Under the pieces are notes generated by a model. The model worked only from the letters and a program-made list of their open reading frames with translations. It was not told the origin of the DNA and did not search any database. Of a DNA stretch of 36,786 bases, positions 370 to 27,647 are shown piece by piece. Location of the stretch: the sequence record MZ375274.1, one strand, 5' to 3'. The DNA comes from Escherichia phage T7. Within the stretch, counting starts at the first letter, position 1, and each line of letters opens with the position of its first letter. A program made the translations under genes and the position numbers.

Positions 370-392
370 TAATACAACTCACTATAGGGAGA
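370..392 (+). promoter_or_regulatory. T7 RNA polymerase promoter phiOL (A at -11)
   Basis: TAATACAACTCACTATAGGGAGA, 22/23 match to the T7 promoter consensus. Confidence 0.7.
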
Positions 393-2589: not shown

Positions 2590-5241
2590 ATGAACACGAT
2601 TAACATCGCTAAGAACGACTTCTCTGACATCGAACTGGCTGCTATCCCGTTCAACACTCTGGCTGACCATTACGGTGAGCGTTTAGCTCGCGAACAGTTG
2701 GCCCTTGAGCATGAGTCTTACGAGATGGGTGAAGCACGCTTCCGCAAGATGTTTGAGCGTCAACTTAAAGCTGGTGAGGTTGCGGATAACGCTGCCGCCA
2801 AGCCTCTCATCACTACCCTACTCCCTAAGATGATTGCACGCATCAACGACTGGTTTGAGGAAGTGAAAGCTAAGCGCGGCAAGCGCCCGACAGCCTTCCA
2901 GTTCCTGCAAGAAATCAAGCCGGAAGCCGTAGCGTACATCACCATTAAGACCACTCTGGCTTGCCTAACCAGTGCTGACAATACAACCGTTCAGGCTGCA
3001 GCAAGCGCAATCGGTCGGGCCATTGAGGACGAGGCTCGCTTCGGTCGTATCCGTGACCTTGAAGCTAAGCACTTCAAGAAAAACGTTGAGGAACAACTCA
3101 ACAAGCGCGTAGGGCACGTCTACAAGAAAGCATTTATGCGAGTTGTCGAGGCTGACATGCTCTCTAAGGGTCTACTCGGTGGCGAGGCGTGGTCTTCGTG
3201 GCATAAGGAAGACTCTATTCATGTAGGAGTACGCTGCATCGAGATGCTCATTGAGTCAACCGGAATGGTTAGCTTACACCGCCAAAATGCTGGCGTAGTA
3301 GGTCAAGACTCTGAGACTATCGAACTCGCACCTGAATACGCTGAGGCTATCGCAACCCGTGCAGGTGCGCTGGCTGGCATCTCTCCGATGTTCCAACCTT
3401 GCGTAGTTCCTCCTAAGCCGTGGACTGGCATTACTGGTGGTGGCTATTGGGCTAACGGTCGTCGTCCTCTGGCGCTGGTGCGTACTCACAGTAAGAAAGC
3501 ACTGATGCGCTACGAAGACGTTTACATGCCTGAGGTGTACAAAGCGATTAACATTGCGCAAAACACCGCATGGAAAATCAACAAGAAAGTCCTAGCGGTC
3601 GCCAACGTAATCACCAAGTGGAAGCATTGTCCGGTCGAGGACATCCCTGCGATTGAGCGTGAAGAACTCCCGATGAAACCGGAAGACATCGACATGAATC
3701 CTGAGGCTCTCACCGCGTGGAAACGTGCTGCCGCTGCTGTGTACCGCAAGGACAAGGCTCGCAAGTCTCGCCGTATCAGCCTTGAGTTCATGCTTGAGCA
3801 AGCCAATAAGTTTGCTAACCATAAGGCCATCTGGTTCCCTTACAACATGGACTGGCGCGGTCGTGTTTACGCTGTGTCAATGTTCAACCCGCAAGGTAAC
3901 GATATGACCAAAGGACTGCTTACGCTGGCGAAAGGTAAACCAATCGGTAAGGAAGGTTACTACTGGCTGAAAATCCACGGTGCAAACTGTGCGGGTGTCG
4001 ATAAGGTTCCGTTCCCTGAGCGCATCAAGTTCATTGAGGAAAACCACGAGAACATCATGGCTTGCGCTAAGTCTCCACTGGAGAACACTTGGTGGGCTGA
4101 GCAAGATTCTCCGTTCTGCTTCCTTGCGTTCTGCTTTGAGTACGCTGGGGTACAGCACCACGGCCTGAGCTATAACTGCTCCCTTCCGCTGGCGTTTGAC
4201 GGGTCTTGCTCTGGCATCCAGCACTTCTCCGCGATGCTCCGAGATGAGGTAGGTGGTCGCGCGGTTAACTTGCTTCCTAGTGAAACCGTTCAGGACATCT
4301 ACGGGATTGTTGCTAAGAAAGTCAACGAGATTCTACAAGCAGACGCAATCAATGGGACCGATAACGAAGTAGTTACCGTGACCGATGAGAACACTGGTGA
4401 AATCTCTGAGAAAGTCAAGCTGGGCACTAAGGCACTGGCTGGTCAATGGCTGGCTTACGGTGTTACTCGCAGTGTGACTAAGCGTTCAGTCATGACGCTG
4501 GCTTACGGGTCCAAAGAGTTCGGCTTCCGTCAACAAGTGCTGGAAGATACCATTCAGCCAGCTATTGATTCCGGCAAGGGTCTGATGTTCACTCAGCCGA
4601 ATCAGGCTGCTGGATACATGGCTAAGCTGATTTGGGAATCTGTGAGCGTGACGGTGGTAGCTGCGGTTGAAGCAATGAACTGGCTTAAGTCTGCTGCTAA
4701 GCTGCTGGCTGCTGAGGTCAAAGATAAGAAGACTGGAGAGATTCTTCGCAAGCGTTGCGCTGTGCATTGGGTAACTCCTGATGGTTTCCCTGTGTGGCAG
4801 GAATACAAGAAGCCTATTCAGACGCGCTTGAACCTGATGTTCCTCGGTCAGTTCCGCTTACAGCCTACCATTAACACCAACAAAGATAGCGAGATTGATG
4901 CACACAAACAGGAGTCTGGTATCGCTCCTAACTTTGTACACAGCCAAGACGGTAGCCACCTTCGTAAGACTGTAGTGTGGGCACACGAGAAGTACGGAAT
5001 CGAATCTTTTGCACTGATTCACGACTCCTTCGGTACCATTCCGGCTGACGCTGCGAACCTGTTCAAAGCAGTGCGCGAAACTATGGTTGACACATATGAG
5101 TCTTGTGATGTACTGGCTGATTTCTACGACCAGTTCGCTGACCAGTTGCACGAGTCTCAATTGGACAAAATGCCAGCACTTCCGGCTAAAGGTAACTTGA
5201 ACCTCCGTGACATCTTAGAGTCGGACTTCGCGTTCGCGTAA
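2590..5241 (+). CDS. 1: T7 RNA polymerase, single-subunit DNA-dependent RNAP (gene 1)
   Basis: 883-aa ORF, MNTINIAKNDFSDIELAAIPFNTLADHYGERLAREQLALEHESYEMGEARFRKMFERQ..., ends ...DFAFA. Confidence 0.98.
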   Translation: MNTINIAKNDFSDIELAAIPFNTLADHYGERLAREQLALEHESYEMGEARFRKMFERQLKAGEVADNAAAKPLITTLLPKMIARINDWFEEVKAKRGKRPTAFQFLQEIKPEAVAYITIKTTLACLTSADNTTVQAAASAIGRAIEDEARFGRIRDLEAKHFKKNVEEQLNKRVGHVYKKAFMRVVEADMLSKGLLGGEAWSSWHKEDSIHVGVRCIEMLIESTGMVSLHRQNAGVVGQDSETIELAPEYAEAIATRAGALAGISPMFQPCVVPPKPWTGITGGGYWANGRRPLALVRTHSKKALMRYEDVYMPEVYKAINIAQNTAWKINKKVLAVANVITKWKHCPVEDIPAIEREELPMKPEDIDMNPEALTAWKRAAAAVYRKDKARKSRRISLEFMLEQANKFANHKAIWFPYNMDWRGRVYAVSMFNPQGNDMTKGLLTLAKGKPIGKEGYYWLKIHGANCAGVDKVPFPERIKFIEENHENIMACAKSPLENTWWAEQDSPFCFLAFCFEYAGVQHHGLSYNCSLPLAFDGSCSGIQHFSAMLRDEVGGRAVNLLPSETVQDIYGIVAKKVNEILQADAINGTDNEVVTVTDENTGEISEKVKLGTKALAGQWLAYGVTRSVTKRSVMTLAYGSKEFGFRQQVLEDTIQPAIDSGKGLMFTQPNQAAGYMAKLIWESVSVTVVAAVEAMNWLKSAAKLLAAEVKDKKTGEILRKRCAVHWVTPDGFPVWQEYKKPIQTRLNLMFLGQFRLQPTINTNKDSEIDAHKQESGIAPNFVHSQDGSHLRKTVVWAHEKYGIESFALIHDSFGTIPADAANLFKAVRETMVDTYESCDVLADFYDQFADQLHESQLDKMPALPAKGNLNLRDILESDFAFA

Positions 5242-7023: not shown

Positions 7024-7046
7024 TTTTACGACTCACTAAAGGAGGT
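7024..7046 (+). promoter_or_regulatory. T7 promoter phi1.5 with altered -16/-15 (TTTTACGACTCACTAAAGGAGGT)
   Basis: Matches the T7 promoter core from -14 to +6, but -16/-15 are TT not AA; looks like a deletion junction. Confidence 0.6.
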
Positions 7047-7475: not shown

Positions 7476-7817
<342 letters not shown>

Positions 7818-11769: not shown

Positions 11770-13884
11770 ATGATCGTTTCTGACATCGAAGCTAACGCCC
11801 TCTTAGAGAGCGTCACTAAGTTCCACTGCGGGGTTATCTACGACTACTCCACCGCTGAGTACGTAAGCTACCGTCCGAGTGACTTCGGTGCGTATCTGGA
11901 TGCGCTGGAAGCCGAGGTTGCACGAGGCGGTCTTATTGTGTTCCACAACGGTCACAAGTATGACGTTCCTGCATTGACCAAACTGGCAAAGTTGCAATTG
12001 AACCGAGAGTTCCACCTTCCTCGTGAGAACTGTATTGACACCCTTGTGTTGTCACGTTTGATTCATTCCAACCTCAAGGACACCGATATGGGTCTTCTGC
12101 GTTCCGGCAAGTTGCCCGGAAAACGCTTTGGGTCTCACGCTTTGGAGGCGTGGGGTTATCGCTTAGGCGAGATGAAGGGTGAATACAAAGACGACTTTAA
12201 GCGTATGCTTGAAGAGCAGGGTGAAGAATACGTTGACGGAATGGAGTGGTGGAACTTCAACGAAGAGATGATGGACTATAACGTTCAGGACGTTGTGGTA
12301 ACTAAAGCTCTCCTTGAGAAGCTACTCTCTGACAAACATTACTTCCCTCCTGAGATTGACTTTACGGACGTAGGATACACTACGTTCTGGTCAGAATCCC
12401 TTGAGGCCGTTGACATTGAACATCGTGCTGCATGGCTGCTCGCTAAACAAGAGCGCAACGGGTTCCCGTTTGACACAAAAGCAATCGAAGAGTTGTACGT
12501 AGAGTTAGCTGCTCGCCGCTCTGAGTTGCTCCGTAAATTGACCGAAACGTTCGGCTCGTGGTATCAGCCTAAAGGTGGCACTGAGATGTTCTGCCATCCG
12601 CGAACAGGTAAGCCACTACCTAAATACCCTCGCATTAAGACACCTAAAGTTTGTGGTATCTTTAAGAAGCCTAAGAACAAGGCACAGCGAGAAGGCCGTG
12701 AGCCTTGCGAACTTGATACCCGCGAGTACGTTGCTGGTGCTCCTTACACCCCAGTTGAACATGTTGTGTTTAACCCTTCGTCTCGTGACCACATTCAGAA
12801 GAAACTCCAAGAGGCTGGGTGGGTCCCGACCAAGTACACCGATAAGGGTGCTCCTGTGGTGGACGATGAGGTACTCGAAGGAGTACGTGTAGATGACCCT
12901 GAGAAGCAAGCCGCTATCGACCTCATTAAAGAGTACTTGATGATTCAGAAGCGAATCGGACAGTCTGCTGAGGGAGACACAGCATGGCTTCGTTATGTTG
13001 CTGAGGATGGTAAGATTCATGGTTCTGTTAACCCTAATGGAGCAGTTACGGGTCGTGCGACCCATGCGTTCCCAAACCTTGCGCAAATTCCGGGTGTACG
13101 TTCTCCTTATGGAGAGCAGTGTCGCGCTGCTTTTGGCGCTGAGCACCATTTGGATGGGATAACTGGTAAGCCTTGGGTTCAGGCTGGCATCGACGCATCC
13201 GGTCTTGAGCTACGCTGCTTGGCTCACTTCATGGCTCGCTTTGATAACGGCGAGTACGCTCACGAGATTCTTAACGGCGACATCCACACTAAGAACCAGA
13301 TAGCTGCTGAACTACCTACCCGAGATAACGCTAAGACGTTCATCTATGGGTTCCTCTATGGTGCTGGTGATGAGAAGATTGGACAGATTGTTGGTGCTGG
13401 TAAAGAGCGCGGTAAGGAACTCAAGAAGAAATTCCTTGAGAACACCCCCGCGATTGCAGCACTCCGCGAGTCTATCCAACAGACACTTGTCGAGTCCTCT
13501 CAATGGGTAGCTGGTGAGCAACAAGTCAAGTGGAAACGCCGCTGGATTAAAGGTCTGGATGGTCGTAAGGTACACGTTCGTAGTCCTCACGCTGCCTTGA
13601 ATACCCTACTGCAATCTGCTGGTGCTCTCATCTGCAAACTGTGGATTATCAAGACCGAAGAGATGCTCGTAGAGAAAGGCTTGAAGCATGGCTGGGATGG
13701 GGACTTTGCGTACATGGCATGGGTACATGATGAAATCCAAGTAGGCTGCCGTACCGAAGAGATTGCTCAGGTGGTCATTGAGACCGCACAAGAAGCGATG
13801 CGCTGGGTTGGAGACCACTGGAACTTCCGGTGTCTTCTGGATACCGAAGGTAAGATGGGTCCTAATTGGGCGATTTGCCACTGA
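11770..13884 (+). CDS. 5: T7 DNA polymerase (gene 5)
   Basis: 704-aa [34 protein letters not shown]... with the 3'-5' exonuclease motif at its N-terminus; ends ...NWAICH. Confidence 0.97.
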
Positions 13885-13929
13885 TACAGGAGGCTACTCC
13901 AAAGGCATAAAACTATAGGAGAAATTATT

Positions 13930-14229
13930 ATGGCTATGACAAAGAAATTTAAAGTGTCCTTCGACGTTACCGCAAAGATGTCGTCTGACGTTCAGGCAAT
14001 CTTAGAGAAAGATATGCTGCATCTATGTAAGCAGGTCGGCTCAGGTGCGATTGTCCCCAATGGTAAACAGAAGGAAATGATTGTCCAGTTCCTGACACAC
14101 GGTATGGAAGGATTGATGACATTCGTAGTACGTACATCATTTCGTGAGGCCATTAAGGACATGCACGAAGAGTATGCAGATAAGGACTCTTTCAAACAAT
14201 CTCCTGCAACAGTACGGGAGGTGTTCTGA
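13930..14229 (+). CDS. 5.5: Gp5.5 (H-NS-binding protein)
   Basis: 99-aa ORF MAMTKKFKVSFDVTAKMSSDVQAILEKDM... Confidence 0.88.
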   Translation: MAMTKKFKVSFDVTAKMSSDVQAILEKDMLHLCKQVGSGAIVPNGKQKEMIVQFLTHGMEGLMTFVVRTSFREAIKDMHEEYADKDSFKQSPATVREVF

Positions 14230-14438
14230 TGTCTGACTACCTGAAAGTGCTGCAAGCAATCAAAAGTTGCCCTAAGACTTTCCAGTCCAACTATGTACGG
14301 AACAATGCGAGCCTCGTAGCGGAGGCCGCTTCCCGTGGTCACATCTCGTGCCTGACTACTAGTGGACGTAACGGTGGCGCTTGGGAAATCACTGCTTCCG
14401 GTACTCGCTTTCTGAAACGAATGGGAGGATGTGTCTAA
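14229..14438 (+). CDS. 5.7: Gp5.7
   Basis: 69-aa ORF MSDYLKVLQAIKSCPKTFQSNYVRNNASLVAEAASRGH..., ATG overlaps the 5.5 stop. Confidence 0.85.
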   Translation: MSDYLKVLQAIKSCPKTFQSNYVRNNASLVAEAASRGHISCLTTSGRNGGAWEITASGTRFLKRMGGCV

Positions 14439-19965: not shown

Positions 19966-19988
19966 TAATACGACTCACTATATGGAGA
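19966..19988 (+). promoter_or_regulatory. T7 class III promoter phi10 with T instead of G at +1
   Basis: TAATACGACTCACTATATGGAGA; the other class III promoters here read ...TATAGGGAGA; followed by the gene 10 leader. Confidence 0.85.
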
Positions 19989-21920: not shown

Positions 21921-24305
21921 ATGGCACTCATTAGCCAATCAATCAAGAACTTGAAGGGTGGTATCAGCCAACAGCCTGACATCCTTCGTTATCCAGACCA
22001 AGGGTCACGCCAAGTTAACGGTTGGTCTTCGGAGACCGAGGGCCTCCAAAAGCGTCCACCTCTTGTTTTCTTAAATACACTTGGAGACAACGGTGCGTTA
22101 GGTCAAGCTCCGTACATCCACCTGATTAACCGAGATGAGCACGAACAGTATTACGCTGTGTTCACTGGTAGCGGAATCCGAGTGTTCGACCTTTCTGGTA
22201 ACGAGAAGCAAGTTAGGTATCCTAACGGTTCCAACTACATCAAGACCGCTAATCCACGTAACGACCTGCGAATGGTTACTGTAGCAGACTATACGTTCAT
22301 CGTTAACCGTAACGTTGTTGCACAGAAGAACACAAAGTCTGTCAACTTACCGAATTACAACCCTAATCAAGACGGATTGATTAACGTTCGTGGTGGTCAG
22401 TATGGTAGGGAACTAATTGTACACATTAACGGTAAAGACGTTGCGAAGTATAAGATACCAGATGGTAGTCAACCTGAACACGTAAACAATACGGATGCCC
22501 AATGGTTAGCTGAAGAGTTAGCCAAGCAGATGCGCACTAACTTGTCTGATTGGACTGTAAATGTAGGGCAAGGGTTCATCCATGTGACCGCACCTAGTGG
22601 TCAACAGATTGACTCCTTCACGACTAAAGATGGCTACGCAGACCAGTTGATTAACCCTGTGACCCACTACGCTCAGTCGTTCTCTAAGCTGCCACCTAAT
22701 GCTCCTAACGGCTACATGGTGAAAATCGTAGGGGACGCCTCTAAGTCTGCCGACCAGTATTACGTTCGGTATGACGCTGAGCGGAAAGTTTGGACTGAGA
22801 CTTTAGGTTGGAACACTGAGGACCAAGTTCTATGGGAAACCATGCCACACGCTCTTGTGCGAGCCGCTGACGGTAATTTCGACTTCAAGTGGCTTGAGTG
22901 GTCTCCTAAGTCTTGTGGTGACGTTGACACCAACCCTTGGCCTTCTTTTGTTGGTTCAAGTATTAACGATGTGTTCTTCTTCCGTAACCGCTTAGGATTC
23001 CTTAGTGGGGAGAACATCATATTGAGTCGTACAGCCAAATACTTCAACTTCTACCCTGCGTCCATTGCGAACCTTAGTGATGACGACCCTATAGACGCAG
23101 CTGTGAGTACCAACCGAATAGCAATCCTTAAGTACGCCGTTCCGTTCTCAGAAGAGTTACTCATCTGGTCCGATGAAGCACAATTCGTCCTGACTGCCTC
23201 GGGTACTCTCACATCTAAGTCGGTTGAGTTGAACCTAACGACCCAGTTTGACGTACAGGACCGAGCGAGACCTTTTGGGATTGGGCGTAATGTCTACTTT
23301 GCTAGTCCGAGGTCCAGCTTCACGTCCATCCACAGGTACTACGCTGTGCAGGATGTCAGTTCCGTTAAGAATGCTGAGGACATTACATCACACGTTCCTA
23401 ACTACATCCCTAATGGTGTGTTCAGTATTTGCGGAAGTGGTACGGAAAACTTCTGTTCGGTACTATCTCACGGGGACCCTAGTAAAATCTTCATGTACAA
23501 ATTCCTGTACCTGAACGAAGAGTTAAGGCAACAGTCGTGGTCTCATTGGGACTTTGGGGAAAACGTACAGGTTCTAGCTTGTCAGAGTATCAGCTCAGAT
23601 ATGTATGTGATTCTTCGCAATGAGTTCAATACGTTCCTAGCTAGAATCTCTTTCACTAAGAACGCCATTGACTTACAGGGAGAACCCTATCGTGCCTTTA
23701 TGGACATGAAGATTCGATACACGATTCCTAGTGGAACATACAACGATGACACATTCACTACCTCTATTCATATTCCAACAATTTATGGTGCAAACTTCGG
23801 GAGGGGCAAAATCACTGTATTGGAGCCTGATGGTAAGATAACCGTGTTTGAGCAACCTACGGCTGGGTGGAATAGCGACCCTTGGCTGAGACTCAGCGGT
23901 AACTTGGAGGGACGCATGGTGTACATTGGGTTCAACATTAACTTCGTATATGAGTTCTCTAAGTTCCTCATCAAGCAGACTGCCGACGACGGGTCTACCT
24001 CCACGGAAGACATTGGGCGCTTACAGTTACGCCGAGCGTGGGTTAACTACGAGAACTCTGGTACGTTTGACATTTATGTTGAGAACCAATCGTCTAACTG
24101 GAAGTACACAATGGCTGGTGCCCGATTAGGCTCTAACACTCTGAGGGCTGGGAGACTGAACTTAGGGACCGGACAATATCGATTCCCTGTGGTTGGTAAC
24201 GCCAAGTTCAACACTGTATACATCTTGTCAGATGAGACTACCCCTCTGAACATCATTGGGTGTGGCTGGGAAGGTAACTACTTACGGAGAAGTTCCGGTA
24301 TTTAA
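21921..24305 (+). CDS. 12: Tail tubular protein B (gp12)
   Basis: 794-aa ORF MALISQSIKNLKGGISQQPDILRYPDQGS... Confidence 0.95.
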   Translation: MALISQSIKNLKGGISQQPDILRYPDQGSRQVNGWSSETEGLQKRPPLVFLNTLGDNGALGQAPYIHLINRDEHEQYYAVFTGSGIRVFDLSGNEKQVRYPNGSNYIKTANPRNDLRMVTVADYTFIVNRNVVAQKNTKSVNLPNYNPNQDGLINVRGGQYGRELIVHINGKDVAKYKIPDGSQPEHVNNTDAQWLAEELAKQMRTNLSDWTVNVGQGFIHVTAPSGQQIDSFTTKDGYADQLINPVTHYAQSFSKLPPNAPNGYMVKIVGDASKSADQYYVRYDAERKVWTETLGWNTEDQVLWETMPHALVRAADGNFDFKWLEWSPKSCGDVDTNPWPSFVGSSINDVFFFRNRLGFLSGENIILSRTAKYFNFYPASIANLSDDDPIDAAVSTNRIAILKYAVPFSEELLIWSDEAQFVLTASGTLTSKSVELNLTTQFDVQDRARPFGIGRNVYFASPRSSFTSIHRYYAVQDVSSVKNAEDITSHVPNYIPNGVFSICGSGTENFCSVLSHGDPSKIFMYKFLYLNEELRQQSWSHWDFGENVQVLACQSISSDMYVILRNEFNTFLARISFTKNAIDLQGEPYRAFMDMKIRYTIPSGTYNDDTFTTSIHIPTIYGANFGRGKITVLEPDGKITVFEQPTAGWNSDPWLRLSGNLEGRMVYIGFNINFVYEFSKFLIKQTADDGSTSTEDIGRLQLRRAWVNYENSGTFDIYVENQSSNWKYTMAGARLGSNTLRAGRLNLGTGQYRFPVVGNAKFNTVYILSDETTPLNIIGCGWEGNYLRRSSGI

Positions 24306-24335
24306 TTAAATATTCTCCCTGTGGTGGCTCGAAAT

Positions 24336-24358
24336 TAATACAACTCACTATAGGGAGA
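24336..24358 (+). promoter_or_regulatory. T7 class III promoter phi13 with A instead of G at -11
   Basis: TAATACAACTCACTATAGGGAGA; differs from phi6.5/phi9/phi17/phiOR in this window at one position. Confidence 0.8.
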
Positions 24359-24385
24359 ACAATACGACTACGGGAGGGTTTTCTT

Positions 24386-24802
24386 ATGATGACTATAAGA
24401 CCTACTAAAAGTACAGACTTTGAGGTATTCACTCCGGCTCACCATGACATTCTTGAAGCTAAGGCTGCTGGTATTGAGCCGAGTTTCCCTGATGCTTCCG
24501 AGTGTGTCACGTTGAGCCTCTATGGGTTCCCTCTAGCTATCGGTGGTAACTGCGGGGACCAGTGCTGGTTCGTTACGAGCGACCAAGTGTGGCGACTTAG
24601 TGGAAAGGCTAAGCGAAAGTTCCGTAAGTTAATCATGGAGTATCGCGATAAGATGCTTGAGAAGTATGATACTCTTTGGAATTACGTATGGGTAGGCAAT
24701 ACGTCCCACATTCGTTTCCTCAAGACTATCGGTGCGGTATTCCATGAAGAGTACACACGAGATGGTCAATTTCAGTTATTTACAATCACGAAAGGAGGAT
24801 AA
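24386..24802 (+). CDS. 13: Internal virion protein A (gp13)
   Basis: 138-aa ORF MMTIRPTKSTDFEVFTPAHHDILEAK... Confidence 0.9.
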   Translation: MMTIRPTKSTDFEVFTPAHHDILEAKAAGIEPSFPDASECVTLSLYGFPLAIGGNCGDQCWFVTSDQVWRLSGKAKRKFRKLIMEYRDKMLEKYDTLWNYVWVGNTSHIRFLKTIGAVFHEEYTRDGQFQLFTITKGG

Positions 24803-25403: not shown

Positions 25404-27647
25404 ATGAGTAAAATTGAATCTGCCCTTCAAGCGGCACAACCGGGACTCTCTCGGTTACGTGGTGGTGCTGGAGGTATGGGCTATCGTGCAGCAACCACTC
25501 AGGCCGAACAGCCAAGGTCAAGCCTATTGGACACCATTGGTCGGTTCGCTAAGGCTGGTGCCGATATGTATACCGCTAAGGAACAACGAGCACGAGACCT
25601 AGCTGATGAACGCTCTAACGAGATTATCCGTAAGCTGACCCCTGAGCAACGTCGAGAAGCTCTCAACAACGGGACCCTTCTGTATCAGGATGACCCATAC
25701 GCTATGGAAGCACTCCGAGTCAAGACTGGTCGTAACGCTGCGTATCTTGTGGACGATGACGTTATGCAGAAGATAAAAGAGGGTGTCTTCCGTACTCGCG
25801 AAGAGATGGAAGAGTATCGCCATAGTCGCCTTCAAGAGGGCGCTAAGGTATACGCTGAGCAGTTCGGCATCGACCCTGAGGACGTTGATTATCAGCGTGG
25901 TTTCAACGGGGACATTACCGAGCGTAACATCTCGCTGTATGGTGCGCATGATAACTTCTTGAGCCAGCAAGCTCAGAAGGGCGCTATCATGAACAGCCGA
26001 GTGGAACTCAACGGTGTCCTTCAAGACCCTGATATGCTGCGTCGTCCAGACTCTGCTGACTTCTTTGAGAAGTATATCGACAACGGTCTGGTTACTGGCG
26101 CAATCCCATCTGATGCTCAAGCCACACAGCTTATAAGCCAAGCGTTCAGTGACGCTTCTAGCCGTGCTGGTGGTGCTGACTTCCTGATGCGAGTCGGTGA
26201 CAAGAAGGTAACACTTAACGGAGCCACTACGACTTACCGAGAGTTGATTGGTGAGGAACAGTGGAACGCTCTCATGGTCACAGCACAACGTTCTCAGTTT
26301 GAGACTGACGCGAAGCTGAACGAGCAGTATCGCTTGAAGATTAACTCTGCGCTGAACCAAGAGGACCCAAGGACAGCTTGGGAGATGCTTCAAGGTATCA
26401 AGGCTGAACTAGATAAGGTCCAACCTGATGAGCAGATGACACCACAACGTGAGTGGCTAATCTCCGCACAGGAACAAGTTCAGAATCAGATGAACGCATG
26501 GACGAAAGCTCAGGCCAAGGCTCTGGACGATTCCATGAAGTCAATGAACAAACTTGACGTAATCGACAAGCAATTCCAGAAGCGAATCAACGGTGAGTGG
26601 GTCTCAACGGATTTTAAGGATATGCCAGTCAACGAGAACACTGGTGAGTTCAAGCATAGCGATATGGTTAACTACGCCAATAAGAAGCTCGCTGAGATTG
26701 ACAGTATGGACATTCCAGACGGTGCCAAGGATGCTATGAAGTTGAAGTACCTTCAAGCGGACTCTAAGGACGGAGCATTCCGTACAGCCATCGGAACCAT
26801 GGTCACTGACGCTGGTCAAGAGTGGTCTGCCGCTGTGATTAACGGTAAGTTACCAGAACGAACCCCAGCTATGGATGCTCTGCGCAGAATCCGCAATGCT
26901 GACCCTCAGTTGATTGCTGCGCTATACCCAGACCAAGCTGAGCTATTCCTGACGATGGACATGATGGACAAGCAGGGTATTGACCCTCAGGTTATTCTTG
27001 ATGCCGACCGACTGACTGTTAAGCGGTCCAAAGAGCAACGCTTTGAGGATGATAAAGCATTCGAGTCTGCACTGAATGCATCTAAGGCTCCTGAGATTGC
27101 CCGTATGCCAGCGTCACTGCGCGAATCTGCACGTAAGATTTATGACTCCGTTAAGTATCGCTCGGGGAACGAAAGCATGGCTATGGAGCAGATGACCAAG
27201 TTCCTTAAGGAATCTACCTACACGTTCACTGGTGATGATGTTGACGGTGATACCGTTGGTGTGATTCCTAAGAATATGATGCAGGTTAACTCTGACCCGA
27301 AATCATGGGAGCAAGGTCGGGATATTCTGGAGGAAGCACGTAAGGGAATCATTGCGAGCAACCCTTGGATAACCAATAAGCAACTGACCATGTATTCTCA
27401 AGGTGACTCCATTTACCTTATGGACACCACAGGTCAAGTCAGAGTCCGATACGACAAAGAGTTACTCTCGAAGGTCTGGAGTGAGAACCAGAAGAAACTC
27501 GAAGAGAAAGCTCGTGAGAAGGCTCTGGCTGATGTGAACAAGCGAGCACCTATAGTTGCCGCTACGAAGGCCCGTGAAGCTGCTGCTAAACGAGTCCGAG
27601 AGAAACGTAAACAGACTCCTAAGTTCATCTACGGACGTAAGGAGTAA
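25404..27647 (+). CDS. 15: Internal core protein C (gp15)
   Basis: 747-aa ORF MSKIESALQAAQPGLSRLRGGAGGMGYRAATTQ... Confidence 0.95.
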   Translation: MSKIESALQAAQPGLSRLRGGAGGMGYRAATTQAEQPRSSLLDTIGRFAKAGADMYTAKEQRARDLADERSNEIIRKLTPEQRREALNNGTLLYQDDPYAMEALRVKTGRNAAYLVDDDVMQKIKEGVFRTREEMEEYRHSRLQEGAKVYAEQFGIDPEDVDYQRGFNGDITERNISLYGAHDNFLSQQAQKGAIMNSRVELNGVLQDPDMLRRPDSADFFEKYIDNGLVTGAIPSDAQATQLISQAFSDASSRAGGADFLMRVGDKKVTLNGATTTYRELIGEEQWNALMVTAQRSQFETDAKLNEQYRLKINSALNQEDPRTAWEMLQGIKAELDKVQPDEQMTPQREWLISAQEQVQNQMNAWTKAQAKALDDSMKSMNKLDVIDKQFQKRINGEWVSTDFKDMPVNENTGEFKHSDMVNYANKKLAEIDSMDIPDGAKDAMKLKYLQADSKDGAFRTAIGTMVTDAGQEWSAAVINGKLPERTPAMDALRRIRNADPQLIAALYPDQAELFLTMDMMDKQGIDPQVILDADRLTVKRSKEQRFEDDKAFESALNASKAPEIARMPASLRESARKIYDSVKYRSGNESMAMEQMTKFLKESTYTFTGDDVDGDTVGVIPKNMMQVNSDPKSWEQGRDILEEARKGIIASNPWITNKQLTMYSQGDSIYLMDTTGQVRVRYDKELLSKVWSENQKKLEEKAREKALADVNKRAPIVAATKAREAAAKRVREKRKQTPKFIYGRKE

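Follow-up and report, generated by a model that had tools for sequence, protein, structure and literature searches.

The phi13 promoter and the substitution at -11

The window analysed here, a 36,786 bp stretch of phage T7 DNA, carries the class III T7 RNA polymerase (RNAP) promoter phi13 on its plus strand at 24336 to 24358 (-17 to +6), with the transcription start (+1) at 24353. Upstream lies gene 12 (tail tubular protein B; 21921 to 24305, plus strand, by alignment to V01146), and the first gene downstream is gene 13 (internal virion protein A; 24386 to 24802, plus strand), which corresponds to V01146 27307 to 27723 at an offset of 2921 and is unchanged in sequence. The promoter reads TAATACAACTCACTATAGGGAGA and matches the consensus at 22 of 23 bases, the exception being an A for G at 24342 (plus strand), which is position -11. 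Reference T7 has the same locus at V01146 27257 to 27279, annotated 'T7 promoter phi13', with the same flanks and the same bases at the other 22 positions; it differs in having G at -11 where the window has A.

We searched both strands of the window with the consensus 23-mer TAATACGACTCACTATAGGGAGA (-17 to +6), allowing up to three mismatches and using 100 shuffles as a control. Ten matches were found, all on the plus strand, against an expectation of 0 from the shuffles. Match spacings of 3320, 1039, 4370, 7292, and 4663 bp agree with the distances between phi6.5, phi9, phi10, phi13, phi17, and phiOR in T7, and the window is collinear with V01146 at a constant offset of 2921 from phi6.5 to phiOR, with phi13 between genes 12 and 13. 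Over 901 bp around phi13 there is exactly one mismatch to V01146, G27263A. Judged by this alignment, phi13 -11A is a real G to A mutation relative to the reference. An earlier note on this sequence had reported the A at -11 and had proposed alignment to reference phi13 as a check; V01146 indeed has G at 27263. The remainder of the promoter is preserved: CTC at -9 to -7 is kept, the non-template base at -11 is still a purine, and both the AT-rich region (-17 to -13) and the GGGAGA initiation region are intact.

Source of the window and distribution of the allele

By sequence comparison, the window is a laboratory-evolved, genome-reduced T7 clone from the CiPGr passage series (Yuan et al., NAR 2022; clones T7_10L to T7_300). 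The nearest GenBank phage records found by BLAST are entitled 'Mutant Escherichia phage T7 clone' T7_xxxL/S, for example, T7_230S and T7_130L, and all have shortened genomes; we assign the window to CiPGr because the clone naming and design of these closest records match those described in PMC9825161. That study took T7 through 300 passages on E. coli with Cas9, lambda-Red, and a spacer/repair-template library and sequenced 60 clones, each named by its transfer number and an L (large plaque) or S (small plaque) (PMC9825161). The accessions run 10L, 10S, 20L, and so on from MZ375233; in this order MZ375274 would be T7_210S, which is probably the window. A T7 heat-adaptation study (PMC8923235) was rejected as the source, as its deposit consists of breseq tables and it makes no mention of such clones. 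The window is thus an engineered and evolved T7, and its departures from the reference are laboratory mutations, not natural promoter diversity; labelling them correctly is a useful outcome in itself.

In a global alignment, the window differs from V01146 at 46 places, comprising 34 substitutions and 12 indels (11 deletions and one 1-bp insertion). The deletions include genes 0.4 to 0.6, 1.4, 1.7, 3.8, 4.2 to 4.7, 5.3, and part of 19.5. Both terminal repeats lack the same 18 bp, GGGTTGGGGATGACCCTT (window 98/99 and 36742/36743), and they also carry a matching G>T at ref 37 and ref 39814; with the same deletion and the same substitution at both ends, the two genome ends evidently change in concert. 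At the window 11706/11707 junction, a 1019-bp deletion (ref 13271 to 14289) takes genes 4.3 to 4.7 together with promoters phi4.3 and phi4.7, and sibling clones have alternative deletions in this region (13350 to 13547 plus 13927 to 14334). In a multiple alignment of ten fetched genomes and the window, the SNP matrix is mosaic among clones, which indicates recombination among them. One position in gene 12, window 23322 (ref 26243), is A in the window and in V01146 and G in all ten other CiPGr clones examined, T7_10L included; the A is an apparent reversion or recombinant allele.

Among 181 phage records matching a 61-mer specific for the phi13 -11A allele, five matched it exactly; all five are CiPGr clones, and no phage record from outside CiPGr was an exact match. 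The multiple alignment places the allele in 130L, 140S, 150S, 190L, 200S, 220S, and the window, with G at this position in V01146, in T7_10L (the earliest clone), and in 230S and 280S; the allele is therefore absent from the two post-220 clones fetched. In T7_220S (24093 to 24116), phi13 -11A is accompanied by a one-base insertion, a G after +6 (ref 27279), so that promoter and leader there bear a second change. Since T7_10L has G and clones from transfers 130 to 220 have A, the allele arose during the experiment. A sequencing artefact was rejected as an explanation, as the allele is present in six other independently sequenced clones, and so was a natural variant, as the 61-mer is exact only in CiPGr records and matches to the promoter 23-mer in IMG/VR lie only at phiOL. 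The allele was polymorphic for about 90 transfers and occurs in both plaque classes. Carriers comprise two L and five S clones among about 20 from transfers 130 to 220, and by a hypergeometric estimate (one-sided P about 0.18) the allele is not significantly associated with plaque size; nor does it co-vary with the RNAP changes V137A and Q184R.

We also considered whether Cas9 targeting could have produced the substitution as an escape mutation, which seems unlikely from the sequence. G27263 lies in no NGG or CCN PAM, and a protospacer can cover it only by using the GGG at +1 to +3 as a PAM; such protospacers are probably near-identical at other consensus promoters (the flanks compared were those of phi10 and phi13) and are therefore unlikely design targets. 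CiPGr spacers were designed within genes (PMC9825161).

Expected effect on promoter activity and on read-through RNA

The statement in the earlier note that -11 is read by the RNAP specificity loop agrees with the literature, in which -11 is contacted by N748 of this loop (PMC8874028; discussion of PMC5937735). The RNAP of the window (gene 1; 2590 to 5241, plus strand) has V137A (window 2999) and Q184R (window 3140) and is otherwise as in the reference; its specificity loop (residues 739 to 770) is unchanged, with N748, R756, and Q758 intact. Q184R is present in every fetched clone from transfer 130 on, V137A is polymorphic, and neither residue lies in the specificity loop or in a known promoter-contact element. 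The same recognition element, position -11 read by residue 748, is at work in T3-type promoters and in the N748D specificity switch; T3, however, has C at -11 and needs D748, whereas the change in the window is from purine to purine and the RNAP keeps N748.

Single-base saturation mutagenesis found a strong preference for a purine at -11 and reported '-11G to A with no effect' (Kartje 2020, PMC7948468), a result which that study describes as agreeing with Patwardhan 2009 and Diaz 1993. The promoter requirement given there is an invariant CTC core at -9 to -7 and a purine at -11 (PMC7948468). The synthetic -11 G>A single mutants (Kartje 2020, and Patwardhan 2009 and Diaz 1993 as cited by Kartje) reproduce the base change of the window within an identical 23-bp context, but they were measured in vitro on short templates, whereas the window allele sits in a phage genome with limiting RNAP, T7 lysozyme, and competing promoters. 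In the accessible portion of the pooled assay of Komura 2018, 93% of variants with >1% activity keep G at -11, and when two triple mutants that include -11A are set against the corresponding single mutants, the implied factor for -11A is about 0.15 to 0.27 of wild type, if effects multiply and single barcodes are taken at face value; in these data, that is at most a 4- to 7-fold loss. Because of these pooled values, a real several-fold weakening by -11A is possible. The expected effect thus ranges from none to several-fold weakening, not a knock-out, and phi13 is expected to stay functional. The suggestion in the earlier note that phi13 activity is reduced finds little support, G>A being the only substitution at -11 that mutagenesis shows to be tolerated (PMC7948468) and the contrary estimate of 0.15 to 0.27 being indirect.

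Read in this way, the RNAP would recognize the purine at -11 through N748 and accept A as a tolerated alternative to G. Transcription of genes 13 to 16 from phi13 would then be unchanged or modestly reduced, at most several-fold, because the CTC, AT-rich, and GGGAGA regions and the specificity loop are all intact and A is tolerated; read-through from phi6.5, phi9, and phi10 would buffer any loss of phi13 output.

The substitution could also act in the RNA. RNA that starts at upstream promoters and runs on through phi13 is predicted to fold into a hairpin with a 15-bp stem (24313 to 24359, plus strand), the 3' arm of which is formed by promoter positions -7 to +7, with z = -4.3 for the wild type and -3.2 for the mutant. 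In the predicted structure, a 3-bp apical helix that includes a pair between G-11 and a C is lost on mutation, and the predicted minimum free energy rises from -27.2 to -22.7 kcal/mol, a cost of about 4.5 kcal/mol. A stable extended hairpin is thereby predicted at the gene 12/13 junction of the polycistronic RNA, as for an R13-type processing site, and the 15-bp hairpin presumably forms the upper stem of R13, an RNase III site. We take R13 cleavage to be at 27281, just 3' of the hairpin stem. An Rfam search gave no family match in the phi13 hairpin region, and RNase III sites are annotated in no record of the collections searched. That a changed R13 hairpin makes gene 12 or gene 13 mRNA more or less stable, or changes its translation, is highly improbable as an explanation of the allele. 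The strength of the predicted hairpin, the predicted loss of its apical helix, and the location of an RNase site, R13, before gene 13 in T7 (PMC6938266) speak for such an effect; in the same predicted structure, however, the mutation widens the apical loop and leaves both the 15-bp main stem and the internal-loop region as they were, and T7 grows without RNase III (PMC6938266). An effect of -11A at the RNA level is possible but would be minor.

By itself, phi13 -11A matters little: phi13, the part played by -11, and the acceptance of A in place of G there were known before, and genomes of sibling CiPGr clones are public.

Changes at other promoters and the origin of the allele

We compared all 17 annotated T7 RNAP promoters between reference and window. 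Exact consensus copies in the reference are phiOR and all five class III promoters, phi13 included, and A at -11 is native only to phiOL and phi3.8. The window has lost phi4.3 and phi4.7 by deletion and has point changes in three promoters: phi13 at -11 (G27263A), phi10 at +1 (G22904T), and phiOL at +1 (A405G). According to the earlier note, phi13 differs at -11 from the other four class III promoters; all four do have G there, but phi10 (19966 to 19988, plus strand) departs from consensus, with T for G at +1 (19983). The +1T of phi10 is found in 33 CiPGr records, from about transfer 120 on, and is therefore nearly fixed; in the accessible portion of the Komura 2018 pooled assay, this +1 G>T change has about 8% of wild-type activity. 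T7_220S has the wild-type G at phi10 +1; a T>C at ref 22966, which lies one base ahead of the start codon (ATG) of gene 10, is common to 220S and 230S.

phiOL (window 370 to 392, plus strand; reference 388 to 410) likewise reads TAATACAACTCACTATAGGGAGA. The A at its -11 (376), which the earlier note had pointed out, is also native in reference phiOL, and the suggestion in that note that canonical phiOL deviates further proved correct, the reference having A at +1, which is mutated to G in the window (387). In the available Komura 2018 data, the reference phiOL state at this position (+1 G>A) has about 40% of wild-type activity. With phiOL A405G and phi13 -11A combined, phiOL and phi13 are now identical 23-mers. 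The two promoters differ in setting: phiOL is at the left genome end, with A at +1 in the reference, and phi13 drives virion genes. phiOL has been called noncanonical and weakly used, and it is presumed to serve in RNAP-mediated genome entry (Bull-lab literature, PMC6171733). A search of IMG/VR for the 23-mer found three contigs only, from T7 relatives about 80 to 94% identical to T7, each with the match at the phiOL position, upstream of a conserved A1 promoter, and with G at +1 already present. T7 phiOL and its natural relatives thus share with the mutated phi13 the A at -11, and the window and the three IMG/VR copies share the whole 23-mer; as these matches lie at phiOL alone, -11A is a conserved property of phiOL that is not found at phi13 in nature.

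Among the CiPGr clones, phiOL +1G is present in 43 records, from about transfer 30 on, and ten records have in addition -11 A>G, which makes phiOL a full class III consensus promoter. The move to +1G, joined in ten records by -11G, suggests selection for a stronger phiOL, and the repeated change of phiOL -11 from A to G is a hint that G is the stronger base in vivo. phiOL -11G occurs together with phi13 -11A in 130L only; the other nine records lack phi13 -11A, and the single reciprocal swap between phiOL and phi13 that 130L suggests was rejected on this ground.

The four promoter point substitutions in the fetched clones all fall at -11 or +1, the only positions at which phiOL differs from the consensus, and three of the four turn one copy into the state of another. 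This pattern is what ectopic gene conversion or template switching would leave, with phi13 -11A copied from phiOL or phi3.8 and phiOL +1G and -11G from consensus copies, helped by T7 recombination and lambda-Red. lambda-Red is expressed in the passage host (PMC9825161), and after A405G, the match between phiOL and phi13 extends over about 25 bp with a single mismatch. Such a tract is very short, however, and has no flanking markers that would reveal conversion; G>A and A>G arise readily as spontaneous transitions, no other copy has the T that phi10 carries at +1, and phiOL -11G and phi13 -11A mostly occur in different clones. We therefore regard conversion as very doubtful.

A second alternative is that -11A was selected for lower phi13 output or for reduced RNAP sequestration, rebalancing class III expression in a phage that lacks many genes and two class II promoters and that carries phi10 +1 G>T as well. 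The promoter 23-mers (345 bp) take three of the 34 window substitutions, with 0.32 expected (Poisson P = 0.004), and this enrichment leaves some room for selection on promoters; phi10 +1T and phiOL +1G rose to near fixation, and the phi13 allele lasted at least 90 transfers in large- and small-plaque clones alike. Against this, the phi13 allele never fixed, is absent from 230S and 280S, and has no exact match in any other record; its carriers show no significant plaque-size association, and G>A was without effect in vitro (PMC7948468). Adaptive retuning of phi13 is accordingly quite unlikely.

In our judgement, phi13 -11A is probably a spontaneous, near-neutral or mildly weakening polymorphism that arose in CiPGr passage and leaves the promoter functional. 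A spontaneous G:C>A:T transition at -11 would have occurred during serial passage under Cas9 plus lambda-Red, and the allele would then have circulated at intermediate frequency by drift, hitch-hiking, and recombination from about transfer 130 to 220. We favour near-neutral drift or hitch-hiking because the allele never fixed, is absent from later sampled clones, and has no association with plaque class or RNAP alleles; on this basis, we infer near-neutrality in vivo.

On a broader reading, which is unlikely, promoter copies evolve in concert or under selection, and phi13 -11A belongs to a rewiring of late transcription driven by adaptation or by conversion. If it were true, phiOL would be moving to the class III consensus, with the +1 G lost from phi10 and the phiOL base acquired by phi13, a rewiring that the original study does not describe; the promoter changes are apparently not discussed in the main text of the CiPGr paper (PMC9825161). 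The point changes in phiOL, phi10, and phi13 do exceed chance in the passage series, which makes them a modest lead for phage genome minimisation, and promoter changes could contribute to the low burst size reported for reduced phages.

A further promoter, phi1.5 (window 7024 to 7046), is altered by a designed deletion: that of gene 1.4 (ref 7608 to 7763) takes its first three bases, so that -16 and -15 in the AT-rich recognition region are TT instead of AA.
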